Source: an uncultured bacterium (lineage in GTDB: Bacteria > Babelota > Babeliae > Babelales > Babelaceae). From it: a stretch of 64,000 nt of DNA. This document shows, piece by piece, positions 36,001 to 39,000 of the stretch. The position numbers were made by a program. The DNA is taken from contig CAWFXL010000001.1 in the NCBI GenBank assembly GCA_963819815.1, positions 1,408,001 through 1,472,000 of the forward strand, read 5' to 3'. Within the stretch, counting starts at the first letter, position 1. Every line of letters begins with the position of its first letter.

Positions 36001-39000
36001 GTTGCCGAGCACGAATGAGCTTGTAGAAGTATTTCGCCGATAAAAAAAGATACTTAAGCAAAGAAAAAAAGCAAAGTATCCGACAAATGCACTCAAATAA
36101 TAGTTATCCATGAAGCTCCCTAGGTAAGGGCTTTGCCCTATGCCCTTTTATTAATCACCAAAACAAAAAAGGGCACAGAGCAAAACCTGCATAGATTTTT
36201 ACCTAATATCGGGAATTTTGCAAGAGTTTTGAATGCTTTAGTTGGTCTATTCTAGATTGGGTTTACAGATATGTTCCAGTTGCTAACGCTGGGATTTCTG
36301 TTGATTATGGTAAGTTTTAAAACGCGTTTAACTTGCGAGTGGCGTGAGAACAAGCCAGATGGAAATAATAAAGGCATAGATAGCAATGGTATCGATAAGC
36401 CCTTGAGCCATCATACTTGCCCGAGAGAGTATGGTGTAGGCTGCTGGATTGTAAGCAATTTGGTCGGCAGCTGCGGCAGCTGCACGTCCAGAACTTATCC
36501 CAGTACCAAATGTTCCGATTCCCATCGTTGCTCCAAAGGCAAGGTATGCAAGACCAATGAGTGGATTTTCATAGACGATTGATGCTTGGTTGATAAGCAT
36601 GAGCGAAATAATAATGGCAAAGACTACAGGTGTCTCAATCATTGCTTGGCTAATAAAGGTAAAAGTGAACAATTTTGAGAAAGCAGCTCTATTGCGGCCC
36701 GCGCTTTTACAGGCTATTTTGGTAAATAGGCAACTACCAAGCACCGGTCCAACAGAACCAAGACCGATAGCGATACCAGCTCCTATAAGTATGAGTGATT
36801 GAGCGACGGTGGTGATACCTGGTAGCATACCATGAATAACGAATGCCATAATAAGTCCAAAGATTAAAGGCGTTTGAAGAAGTGAAAGTACCAGAAGCAT
36901 AAAATTTCTCATGCGACGGGATACAAATGGTTGCCGCGCTATTGCACCAAGAGCGTTAGATGCAGGATCTGCAGAAGCCCATCCTATAACTAAGCCAGGT
37001 ATTCCCATGGAGAAAGCTATGCCAAGCTCTCCCAAAGCTGATGGAAATGTCGTTGGAGGCTTAAAGAATAAGAAAAAAGACATAAGGAATCCAAGGATTG
37101 CTGCGGTCTCAATAAGTGCTAAGGCTAAAATCGTTGCTCCCGTAATTTCTCCTTGCATAGCTGGCTGTCTTTCTATCGCCTCAAAGGAGGCTGCAGCAGT
37201 TTTTCCATGGCTACGGGAAACTCCATATGCAGTGGCAACGGTGCAAAAGACAATGGAAAAAAAATGTATGAGCTGAGCAAGTGCGACCATTAGTGCTTTC
37301 CTTCTTCAATTGCGGTTGCCATACTAATATTAGTAAGCGTAAGAATCGTAAATACAAAAGCCTGTAGCCCGCCCTCAAAGATGACGAAAAATGCCACCAA
37401 TCCCAAATGAACGCCAATAGTACTTATGAGCTGCCAAATAAAAGAACCTGCTATACCATTGTGCCAGATCTGCATAATAATTGCCCCTCCAAATATATTG
37501 CCAAAGAGCCTGAAGGAGAGGGAGATAACCGTTGCTAACTCGCCGAGTATTTTAAAGGGAGCGAAGAAAAGACCGATGATAAGGTTAAGAGGAAAGAAGG
37601 TGGAGACTGGTAGGAAATATTCTTTGAGATAGTGTCCAAAGCCATGGACCTTAATGATCTCTTTTTGTATATAGAGGAGTGCTATTGTTCCCAGGGCAAG
37701 GGTTGTATTAAGATTTTTAGTTGGCTCTTCTACATAGGGAATAAGCGCAACCCAGTTGCAGATGAGAATAAAGATAAAAAGTGCTGCAATAAAATTAAAA
37801 TAGCGATGCACAAAAGCTCCCGTAGACTGTTCAACAAGGGACATAAAACTTCTGATGACCGATGTTGCAACATATTTGCCATAGGTTAGAAATGTAAAGT
37901 CTGGAGGCAGAAGCAGCTTTTGATATTCATGATTTTCACTGTGAATGCGTAGGAGTATAGAACGTGCGAGTAAGCAGAGGGCTAGTATAATTGCTAAGGC
38001 GATCCAGGTACTGATAATGGTAGTTCCAGAAAGAGCAAAAAATTGATTATCTACCCCAAAACTTTTAAGGGGATGCCATATAATTTCATGTTCTACATTT
38101 TGCATTTTTTACTATTCGTTTAGGCAAAGGATAGCGACCCATTTGGCTATCATCATGCTGCCTCCAAAGAGTATAAAGGGAACGGGTCCCCAATGCAATA
38201 GATACCAGGCTATGAGGCCAAGACTTCCTAAACGAAGTAACGCTAAAATAGGGATATACCGCGATGAAGTTGAGCTATATGCAGATACTTGCCGTATCAG
38301 GTGATAGCCTGACAAAGAGCCTGCACATACCCCTATGGCGAGTGAAGCAATATAGGTGAAAATACTATTCATTGTTCATTATTTAAAACTTGTTGATGCC
38401 TTTATAGCGCCAATAAGCTGCTACTGCAGAATGTGATCCCGTTACACATATCAAGCCTTGGCGTTCATTAACGCTTTGCTTCGCGGCTTCGAAAGCTTCT
38501 TTAAAGGTTGAAAAGGCGCGAGCCTTAACTTTCATGCTCTTGATATCGTTAGCAACTTTTTCAGGATTCCAAGATGTATCTTCATGAACCCCAGGAAGTG
38601 ATACTTCTATAGGGAAAATAAAGAGCTGGCCGGATGTCTTTTTAAAGAAATAGCGCACAAGTTTGAGGAACTCTTCATTGTGCATACTTTTCTCCGACGC
38701 TGCCATGACAAGTGCAAAGCCTTTATGAGGCTGGCTGTAGTGAAGGAGACGGATACCAAGAAGAAGATTTTTAAAGGCATCAAGATTTGAAGAAGTATCA
38801 AGAAGTACTCCCGGCTCTTCTTTAGCAACGAGCTCGAATCTGCCTGGCAGTTCATTTTTTTCAGTTTTCCAGAATTCTTCTAGAGACTTTTGAGGTTTAA
38901 GCTCTGCCTTACGTTTATCTTCCAAAGTAGGGCGGCCACGTTTGACCGGTTTGCGACTGAGTAAGCTATCTGCCGTAACAGTGGCATCTTTATTAAAGTA

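Follow-up and report, generated by a model that had tools for sequence, protein, structure and literature searches.

The c-ring sets the ion-to-ATP ratio of rotary ATPases, and in V-type rings the number of ions per ATP is halved. In the textbook account, fused and site-poor c subunits mark the V/A type, where they are classically tied to ATP-driven pumping, and the two-hairpin c1 of Acetobacterium woodii, whose c genes stand in tandem within one operon, is the lone F-type exception; hybrid rotors are reportedly the subject of a 2015 paper by Brandt and Müller. Passages of one published account describe the F/V-hybrid Na+ c-ring of A. woodii (PDB 4BEM) as built from nine single-hairpin c2/3 subunits and one c1, and give archaeal c subunits 1, 2, 3 or 13 hairpins (PMC9171764); a four-hairpin form goes unmentioned in the passages of the V/A-type literature that were searched. 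Here, we describe a gene, c4, whose sequence and setting support its being a genuine F-type rotor-subunit gene that is tied to subunit a, occurs throughout the phylum Dependentiae and has one hairpin predicted to be silent.

The gene lies in a window of 64,000 nucleotides from an uncultured bacterium of the Babelaceae (assembly GCA_963819815.1, contig CAWFXL010000001.1, positions 1,408,001 to 1,472,000 of the forward strand), and its features are collected in Table 1. A preliminary description of this DNA had reported a 320-aa protein of four hairpins beside subunit a, and the open reading frame, its four stretches matching ATP-synt_C (PF00137; 2e-31, 108.5 bits against a Pfam cut-off of 24) and the adjoining PF00119 frame agree with it. 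Across the whole genome, PF00137 matched four times within the c4 frame and once elsewhere. The best NCBIfam matches of c4 were F0F1 subunit C models, with TIGR01260 scoring 44.7 against a cut-off of 43.95 and the other single-hairpin equivalog models staying below their cut-offs, and V-type K models scored far below the F0F1 c models on its hairpins. The AF2 model (pLDDT 96.3, pTM 0.91) consisted of eight long helices. Both by sequence (8.3e-20) and by fold, the best solved relative of c4 was A. woodii c1 (4bem_J); the Na+ rings of A. woodii, I. tartaricus and F. nucleatum were among the closest solved relatives, and V/A-type proteolipids formed a second tier of sequence and fold matches. A V-type origin of c4 was ruled out by the F-type model scores, by the absence of any match to V-type a (PF01496) in this 88% complete genome, and by the set of PF00006 matches, which comprised alpha, the broken beta, Rho and, below cut-off, a weak hit to a 617-aa frame (20.2 bits).

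The ATG of c4 shares one base with the stop codon of subunit a. This arrangement is general: in all 20 loci compared, drawn from 18 families, c4 has subunit a as its immediate upstream neighbour, at spacings of -58 to +33 nt, extending the five of five loci reported earlier. The stator Arg199 of subunit a is Arg in all 21 orthologues. Subunit a is also the sole PF00119 match in the genome; since an F1Fo is inoperable without it and only one a gene is present, this a must serve an F1-linked ring. The 86-aa membrane ORF upstream, at the position that AtpI holds in classical atp operons, gave no Pfam or NCBIfam match. Of 20 other loci, 16 have a small hydrophobic ORF next to subunit a on the same strand (the 17th candidate does not resemble a membrane protein, and three loci have none), and one of ten scanned orthologues matched ATP-synt_I at E 0.044, too weak to use. 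A promoter and terminator scan of window positions 35900-40200 returned counts not above those of shuffles (8 vs 9.3; 3 vs 3.9). Among the sequence data sets listed as containing window positions 36328-38372, none was of RNA, and the five of DNA had small or moderate shares.

Table 1. Features of the a-c4 unit and the ordinary c gene, in window positions unless marked as contig positions.
Feature	Position	Strand	Details
c4 (fused four-hairpin c subunit gene)	36328..37290	(-)	320-aa ORF, 8 TM helices
Hairpin 1 of c4	37045..37290	(-)	residues 1-82; E61 codon 37108-37110; loop R-Q-P
Hairpin 2 of c4	36811..37044	(-)	residues 83-160; Gln139 codon 36874-36876; loop R-Q-P
Hairpin 3 of c4	36571..36810	(-)	residues 161-240; E219 codon 36634-36636
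Hairpin 4 of c4	36331..36570	(-)	residues 241-320; D300 codon 36391-36393
F-type stator subunit a	37290..38105	(-)	271 aa; ATP-synt_A (PF00119) 2.4e-32; Arg199 codon 37509-37511
86-aa membrane ORF upstream of subunit a	38112..38372	(-)	ORF only; AtpI-like position
Ordinary single-hairpin c	contig 1353461-1353700	(+)	80 aa; outside window; heads separate operon

When the four hairpins were aligned with the ordinary c, E61, Q139, E219 and D300 all fell in the column of its Glu, each directly followed by Thr, so the alignment and codons bear out the earlier statement that hairpins 1, 3 and 4 keep a carboxylate and hairpin 2 has Gln. With Gln139 in place of a carboxylate, the site of hairpin 2 is predicted to be silent. 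Each hairpin bears its own conserved signature among 116 close homologues and 126 representatives. The hairpin 1 carboxylate is E in all 116 close homologues (E 122, D 4 of the representatives), and that of hairpin 3 is E in 116 of 116 and in 119 of 126, with G or Q standing in its place in three of 21 genomes (families f4, f5 and f15). The hairpin 2 column holds Q in 109 and E in 7 of the close homologues (Q 96, E 22 and M/L/V/S 8 of the representatives), with R119-Q120-P121 nearly invariant, and the hairpin 4 column holds D in 99, E in 16 and S in 1 of the 116. Three carboxylates per c4 were counted in 98 of the 126 representatives, four in 20, two in 5 and one in 3; fewer than four thus occur in 106 of 126, and the count varies from one to four instead of being fixed.

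Measured against the Na+ motif, which we take from the I. tartaricus and A. woodii literature to be Gln, Glu, Ser/Thr and Tyr, the sites at the outer edges of c4 look like canonical Na+ sites, with hairpin 1 as the acceptor and, in hairpin 4, T301 and Y305 as donors, both of which are predicted to point towards the neighbouring rotor subunit. The position of the ligand Gln in hairpin 1 is occupied by His28 in this genome and by Gln in 95 of 126 representatives, and Y305 is present in 106 of 126. Thr or Ser comes directly after the carboxylate column in most hairpins. At hairpins 3 and 4, the internal sites retain a carboxylate without the Gln and Tyr ligands.

Conservation throughout the order, earlier put at 31 of 31 genomes, proved stronger than claimed: c4 was matched in all 151 sampled genomes of the phylum (one order, 18 families), as was the small c gene. 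Among the 150 c4 matches listed, 149 run from about residue 1-18 to residue 311-319, their open frames being 311-354 aa long, another has a frame of 249 aa, and three have one in-frame stop; the weakest genome (E 3e-16) lies outside these 150. The possibility that c4 is a neutral or decaying duplicate was rejected because of this retention and the conservation specific to each hairpin.

The ordinary c heads a separate operon with delta and alpha, as had been described. Behind it come two ORFs (123 and 159 aa), which gave no Pfam match at E 0.01 and are called b' and b by position only, then OSCP/delta and alpha; in all 20 loci the order from ordinary c to alpha is preserved along a single strand, and the a-c4 unit stands apart from all F1 genes in the same number. 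Delta, alpha, gamma, beta and epsilon were all found elsewhere in the genome, as one F1 gene set. The beta gene (atpD) is indeed broken in this assembly and is an open frame of 479-505 aa in five of five relatives, so the integrity of the enzyme rests on those relatives. The full Q..E-S/T..Y Na+ motif is present in the ordinary c of this genome and of 17 of the 21 genomes overall (18 families), with part of it missing from the other four orthologues. The two c genes are adjacent in 0 of 20 loci, unlike in the A. woodii operon, which counts against a hybrid ring.

A predicted pair of c4 and ordinary c reached an ipSAE of 0.71 (best control 0.00); in calibration, 116 of 157 solved complexes attained that mark, as against 2 of 215 mismatched pairs. 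The prediction would not tell a c4-c contact from a c4-c4 contact. Runs agreed in at least 99% of contacts, with a partner pLDDT of at least 86. The ordinary c docked on c4 residues 242-319, within hairpin 4, with L298 lying close to E63 and Y305 close to residues 67-70 of the ordinary c. Because c-rings have already been solved, this pass may only reflect likeness.

From these genes and sequences, we infer the placement of c4 in the ring, the hybrid composition, the silence of hairpin 2, the ion species and the pump direction. Taken as a whole, we give about an even chance to the reading that c4 is a ring subunit of the single F1Fo, most likely in a hybrid with ordinary c, probably Na+-coupled and mainly ATP-driven. 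Four covalently joined F-type c hairpins would then be made together with stator subunit a, and c4 would take four hairpin positions in the hybrid ring but offer three carboxylates (E61, E219 and D300). As Gln139 passes Arg199 of subunit a, the ring would advance one step without an ion, and ions per ATP would fall by one site per fused subunit. The enzyme would mostly use ATP to pump ions, probably Na+, and the gradient would feed Na+ symporters such as that of the adjacent PutP-like gene. The silent site, one in four, would cut the number of ions per ATP by no more than 25%, a figure that falls to ~9% if the hybrid ring has 11 hairpins; the lowered gearing proposed in the preliminary description retains its silent hairpin but stays far from V-type halving. 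One c4 per hybrid ring would be a small gear change, so that phylum-wide conservation is harder to explain by gearing alone.

The energetic setting fits an ATP-driven pump. All three TLC ATP/ADP translocase genes claimed earlier were confirmed, and no match to complex I/Mrp-type (PF00361) or Rnf/Nqr (PF03116) proteins was found in the genome, absences that are provisional because it is 88% complete. An M-PPase gene is present, passing both the 'sodium-translocating' and the 'H+-translocating' NCBIfam cut-offs, which favours neither ion. With ATP import and no respiratory chain seen, the enzyme should run mainly in the ATP-driven direction. The earlier suggestion to this effect is therefore consistent with the gene content but is not new, since this direction was already proposed in the parts of Yeoh et al. 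2016 that concern TM6 (PMC4776705).

The full Na+ signature of the ordinary c in 17 of 21 genomes makes Na+ the probable coupling ion. An H+-coupled enzyme, in which the c4 carboxylates would simply bind H+ and the Na+-like motif of the ordinary c would be a relic, is possible, though we lean against it. The missing Gln and Tyr ligands of hairpins 3 and 4, His28 in hairpin 1 of this genome, the four incomplete motifs among 21 ordinary c orthologues and the proton gradient of which the TM6 passages of Yeoh et al. speak (PMC4776705) would all suit H+, but the 17 complete motifs across 18 families, the Thr or Ser after the carboxylate column in most hairpins, the Na+ rings among the closest solved relatives, and the PutP-like Na+ symporter gene that is the downstream neighbour of c4 (although its score is below the NCBIfam cut-off) argue for Na+.

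We consider it unlikely that the ring is made of c4 alone, for example as two or three copies, with the ordinary c forming a different ring on the same stator under other conditions or in other life stages. Such a ring would have 8 or 12 hairpins and 6 or 9 sites and would move 2 or 3 ions per ATP, and it would suit the linkage of c4, rather than ordinary c, to subunit a in 20 of 20 loci; hairpin 1 (Gln and Glu) and hairpin 4 (Thr and Tyr) would also complement each other at a c4-c4 contact as at a c4-c contact. It is made less likely by the ordinary c being kept in 151 of 151 genomes and heading the delta-alpha operon in 20 of 20 loci, the latter arguing for a bulk ring subunit, and we know of no precedent for two alternative rings on one stator. 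Archaeal c subunits of 1, 2, 3 or 13 hairpins, in the passages cited above (PMC9171764), speak for a c4-only ring, whereas the sole solved F-type case of a fused c is a hybrid ring (4BEM). A ring fixed to multiples of four, as first envisaged, is accordingly less likely, and the hybrid fits better.

Finally, it is very improbable that c4 does not rotate in F1Fo and instead forms a separate Fo-like ion path with a (and perhaps the small ORF) or serves as an assembly template that sets curvature or size: the fact that no F1 gene accompanies the a-c4 unit at any of 20 loci and the similar isolation of a and fused c in Desulfobacterota-type loci would be in line with this, but there is a single a gene, and the mid-membrane carboxylates and R-Q-P loops are conserved as a working rotor requires.

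A quadruple F-type c had been called undescribed. No description of a four- or multi-hairpin F-type c, or of an unusual Dependentiae c, was found in the literature searched, which fell short of most subscription journals; the design itself, however, is shared with Desulfobacterota. Records labelled Desulfobacterota contain many F-type c proteins in which 4, 5 or 6 hairpins are fused, under the name 'ATP synthase F0 subunit C', and the literature searched yielded no published account of them. In all 21 metagenome loci of 12 kb or more, the gene immediately upstream of the fused c is subunit a; within 6 kb, the alpha, delta, gamma and epsilon of this genome had no match at loci of this type, and its putative b' (123 aa) was matched at one. 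Among the Desulfobacterota-labelled matches listed, the column reads E-Q-Q-Q in 18 of 22 four-hairpin, E-Q-Q-Q-Q in 58 of 70 five-hairpin and E-Q-Q-Q-Q-Q in 21 of 29 six-hairpin proteins; these proteins keep the first carboxylate only, whereas c4 of Dependentiae generally has three. The two groups share internal 'Q-T-P...F' hairpins and a Tyr-bearing last hairpin, and profile scores pair first hairpins with first, internal ones with internal and last with last. Cross-group profile scores of ~50-70 bits, against 100-150 within a group, are too weak to tell descent from convergence.

With confidence a little short of even, we suggest that Dependentiae hold a 'gear series', in which a four-hairpin arc would have been kept since the root of the phylum while sites were switched off lineage by lineage (4, 3, 2 or 1 live), the arc either flanked by Na+-type single hairpins or making up the ring by itself in two or three copies, and belonging to a far larger and undescribed F-type superfamily of 4-6 hairpins shared with Desulfobacterota. 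If this is true, hairpin fusion followed by site loss, the classic divide between V and F types, arose repeatedly inside F-type enzymes. A phylum-wide four-hairpin F-type c in ATP-importing parasites changes the textbook picture, and the variants with one to four sites, together with the 4-6-hairpin relatives from sulfate reducers, offer a comparative series for gear setting, the passage of silent hairpins and hybrid-ring assembly. For the biology of Dependentiae, c4 suggests that the membrane is energised by Na+ at the expense of host ATP, where published accounts assumed a proton gradient.

Compared with known systems, this genome has the A. woodii-type set of a fused and a single-hairpin c, one a, one F1 set, a lost carboxylate and the Na+ motif. 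As in A. woodii, a fused F-type c coexists with a single-hairpin c bearing that motif; the printed alignment gives c1 one Glu hairpin and one Gln hairpin, and c4 likewise has one hairpin with Gln for Glu and retains Tyr in the last hairpin only. Unlike c1, with two hairpins and one site, c4 has four hairpins and three predicted sites (1-4 across the family), its gene is far from that of the ordinary c in 20 of 20 loci, and the fused form, a putative ring member, is phylum-wide in Dependentiae. With the V/A-type proteolipids (E. hirae NtpK, 2BL2; eukaryotic c/c'/c''; archaeal forms), c4 shares multiple covalently joined hairpins and fewer predicted sites than hairpins; unlike theirs, its partner is an F-type a (PF00119).

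The fused four-hairpin F-type c subunit (c4; hairpins numbered 1–4 from the N terminus) is a real, strongly conserved gene, and the preliminary description of it was right in every checkable particular: its open reading frame, Pfam domains, subunit a neighbour and carboxylate column. Three abutting minus-strand genes, a small hydrophobic ORF, the stator subunit a and c4, lie in the window, and one base is common to the stop codon of a and the ATG of c4. The top NCBIfam matches of c4 are F0F1 subunit C models, with V-type K models scoring far lower, and its AlphaFold2 model (87 homologues) has eight long helices (mean pLDDT 96.3, pTM 0.91). 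The solved structure closest to it, in a profile search (8.3e-20) as well as in Foldseek, is 4bem_J, the two-hairpin c1 of the Acetobacterium woodii F-type ring; the V-type K subunit of E. hirae ranks next. In neither search does a solved chain extend over more than about half of the model. When the four hairpins are aligned with the genome's ordinary single-hairpin c subunit, the carboxylate column holds E61, Q139, E219 and D300, each with Thr next to it.

Features of the ATPase loci and their neighbours (window positions, unless marked C1, the contig of this genome)
Feature	Position	Strand	Observation
ORF, 1068 aa	30990-34196	-	Long ankyrin-like repeat array, Cys-rich zinc-finger-like tail (by eye, translation)
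c4, 320 aa	36328-37290	-	Four ATP-synt_C stretches (Pfam, 2e-31)
F-type subunit a, 271 aa	37290-38105	-	PF00119, 2.4e-32
Small hydrophobic ORF, 86 aa	38112-38372	-	ORF without family match
FolC/Mur-ligase-like gene, 494 aa	38383-39867	-	Upstream of small ORF-a-c4; Mur_ligase_C 27 bits, just under Pfam cut-off 28.4
ORF, 151 aa	40183-40638	+	Prepilin-like N-terminus GFTLIELMIVVALIA (translation only)
ORF, 252 aa	40640-41398	-	Multi-pass membrane ORF with Cys pairs, adjoins the 151-aa ORF (translation only)
Fragmented beta gene	C1:1215857-1216501	-	Outside window; four reading frames; one piece contains TGA and TAG in frame
Deoxynucleoside kinase	C1:1352363-1353169		Near ordinary c

Both c genes were matched in 151/151 genomes of a phylum sample that comprised one order, 18 families and 96 genera. 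Of 150 c4 matches listed, 149 spanned nearly the full query in open frames of 311–354 aa and one lay in a 249-aa frame, with a single in-frame stop in three; ordinary c occupied open frames of 82–136 aa in all 150 matches listed, elsewhere in the genomes than c4. For gene order we compared 20 c4 loci, which represent 18 families, and the 20 ordinary-c loci that match them. Subunit a lay directly upstream of c4 on the same strand in 20/20 (spacing −58 to +33 nt), and ordinary c, delta and alpha occurred within 7 kb of c4 in 0/20. All 20 ordinary-c loci had alpha downstream in the same orientation, and none had gamma or epsilon there. Given these counts and the universal matches, the split ATPase gene layout goes back to the ancestor of the phylum, with both c genes always kept. 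The stator Arg of a was present in all genomes of a smaller sample (21 genomes, 18 families). Named records with c4 are Candidatus Dependentiae, Babeliales or TM6 assemblies; the others carry only the labels 'bacterium' or 'uncultured Pseudomonadota'.

A FolC-like gene stood upstream of a–c4 in this genome and in 13/20 other loci. The deoxynucleoside kinase was matched in 16/20 ordinary-c loci from 18 families (L054–L073), mostly immediately upstream in the same orientation, and further off in two, an unexpectedly stable neighbourhood. Elsewhere in the window, the 1068-aa ORF reads as a candidate effector of eukaryote-like type, as is typical for parasites of amoebae, and the 252-aa membrane ORF resembles a prepilin peptidase.

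In this genome (1.64 Mb, 2 contigs, 88% complete), subunit a is single copy, V-type a has no match, and the F-type genes are spread over four places: small ORF–a–c4; about 91 kb upstream of c4, ordinary c (80 aa), ORFs of 123 and 159 aa, delta and alpha; gamma; and beta–epsilon. The 123- and 159-aa ORFs gave no Pfam match and are labelled b'/b by position only. The beta gene, which forms open frames of 479–505 aa in 5/5 relatives, is split here either through assembly indel errors or because it became a pseudogene very recently. Rho accounts for the third strong match to PF00006 in the genome. Three TLC ATP/ADP translocases and a membrane pyrophosphatase are encoded, and complex I/Mrp-type antiporter subunits and Rnf/Nqr found no match in this 88% complete assembly.

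Ordinary c carries Gln...Glu-Ser/Thr...Tyr in 17/21 genomes, this one included, the signature by which the rings of I. tartaricus and A. woodii bind Na+. Because of this pattern, the ATPase is probably Na+-coupled, rather than H+-coupled as the literature assumed. A PutP-like Na+/solute symporter, scoring under its NCBIfam cut-off, is the downstream neighbour of c4. NCBIfam models for Na+-translocating and for H+-translocating types both accept the membrane pyrophosphatase. The study of Yeoh et al. already suggests that ATP hydrolysis by ATP synthase upholds a proton gradient (PMC4776705).

We counted hairpin residues across 116 full-length close homologues of c4. The carboxylate column held E in all 116 in hairpins 1 and 3, Q in 109 and E in 7 in hairpin 2, and D in 99, E in 16 and S in 1 in hairpin 4. 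Thr followed the column in 114–116/116 in every hairpin, Tyr five residues past it was kept in hairpin 4 only (114/116), and an R-Q-P loop was conserved in hairpins 1 and 2. A more diverse set, 126 full-length cluster representatives taken from an exhaustive search, included 98 proteins with three carboxylates, 20 with four, 5 with two and 3 with one, of which the site-poorest may not be Dependentiae. Across the 21 genomes, four families (f9–f12) had all four, three (f4, f5, f15) had two, and f7 had lost the hairpin 4 carboxylate instead of that of hairpin 2. Because these patterns differ among families, ion sites appear to have been lost independently in different c4 hairpins.

We give roughly even chances to a hybrid ring of c4 and ordinary c. 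Three points favour this composition over a ring of c4 alone, which we consider unlikely: every genome sampled has both c genes, the stator is single, and where a fused c occurs in a solved F-type enzyme, the sole case so far, the ring is a hybrid in which one c1 joins nine single hairpins (PMC9171764). A low c4 copy number would also fit, if weakly, the tight coupling of c4 to single-copy a. Pair prediction of c4 with ordinary c gave an ipSAE of 0.71 against 0.00 for the best control, a mark reached in the calibration of the tool by 116/157 solved complexes and 2/215 mismatched pairs. Since solved c-rings exist, resemblance to them may be all that lies behind this pass, which also cannot tell c4–c from c4–c4 contact. 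Contact agreement between runs was at least 99% and partner pLDDT at least 86. The prediction contributes an orientation, in which hairpin 4 is the docking face for ordinary c, whose Glu63 lies against L298 and whose following residues lie against Y305.

Each ion site would consist of Gln and Glu from one hairpin plus Thr and Tyr from the preceding one. On that reading the two junction sites would look canonical, hairpin 1 bringing Glu together with Gln (95/126 representatives; His in this genome), and hairpin 4 offering its Thr and Tyr to the subunit that follows. All three sites inside c4 would be degenerate, site 2 usually dead and sites 3 and 4 keeping the carboxylate without Gln and without Tyr. 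We consider this mechanism plausible. For inferred rings, three c4 would give 12 hairpins, 9 sites and 3.0 ions per ATP (4.0 if every hairpin were live); two c4, 8 hairpins, 6 sites and 2.0 (2.7); and one c4 with seven ordinary c, 11 hairpins, 10 sites and 3.3 (3.7). By this arithmetic the V-like lowered gearing proposed earlier would be real in kind but only modest in size.

Apart from A. woodii c1, a full-text search, with subscription journals mostly outside it, returned no F-type c with several hairpins, four or otherwise. A preprint of 2026 on how rotary ATPases evolved describes c duplications as much commoner in A-type than F-type enzymes and names A. woodii alone (10.64898/2026.10.01.756066). 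Among other proteins found in our searches, P0232 (968 aa; cluster of 12) has 11 PF00137 stretches in one polypeptide, or about 12 F-type-like hairpins by eye, all with '...VESAAIY'; it is very Trp-rich, and NCBIfam matches it best to F0F1 subunit C. This chain has the look of a complete rotor ring in a single polypeptide, with hairpins F-type rather than V-type. P0257 and P0279 (1139 and 1147 aa; source names Promethearchaeota and Hodarchaeota, Asgard archaea) carry fifteen V-type K-like ATP-synt_C hairpins per chain and are longer than the literature's 13-hairpin Methanopyrus kandleri subunit.

Also among the results of the exhaustive search were proteins with five hairpins (406 and 411 aa), in which the first Glu alone is kept. 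Searching with one of them returned 2409 proteins at E ≤ 1e-10, with lengths clustering near 324, 404 and 486 aa and, where named, annotated as 'ATP synthase F0 subunit C' of Deltaproteobacteria, Desulfobacterales or Thermodesulfobacteriota. Unlike c4, these Desulfobacterota-labelled four-, five- and six-hairpin subunits (P0230, P0255, P0283–P0401) have Glu mostly in the first hairpin alone; E-Q-Q-Q (18), E-Q-Q-Q-Q (58) and E-Q-Q-Q-Q-Q (21) dominate among 121 examined. Like c4, they have F-type a directly upstream, in 21/21 metagenome loci of at least 12 kb. Match regions at such loci (L154–L233) run longer than the fused gene itself, a hint that a single-hairpin c adjoins it. Profile cross-scores between the two groups pair first with first, second with internal and last with last hairpins; at about 50–70 bits they could reflect either common descent or convergence. 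Fused c subunits are known as a kind, and c4 is an apparently undescribed part of a wider family.
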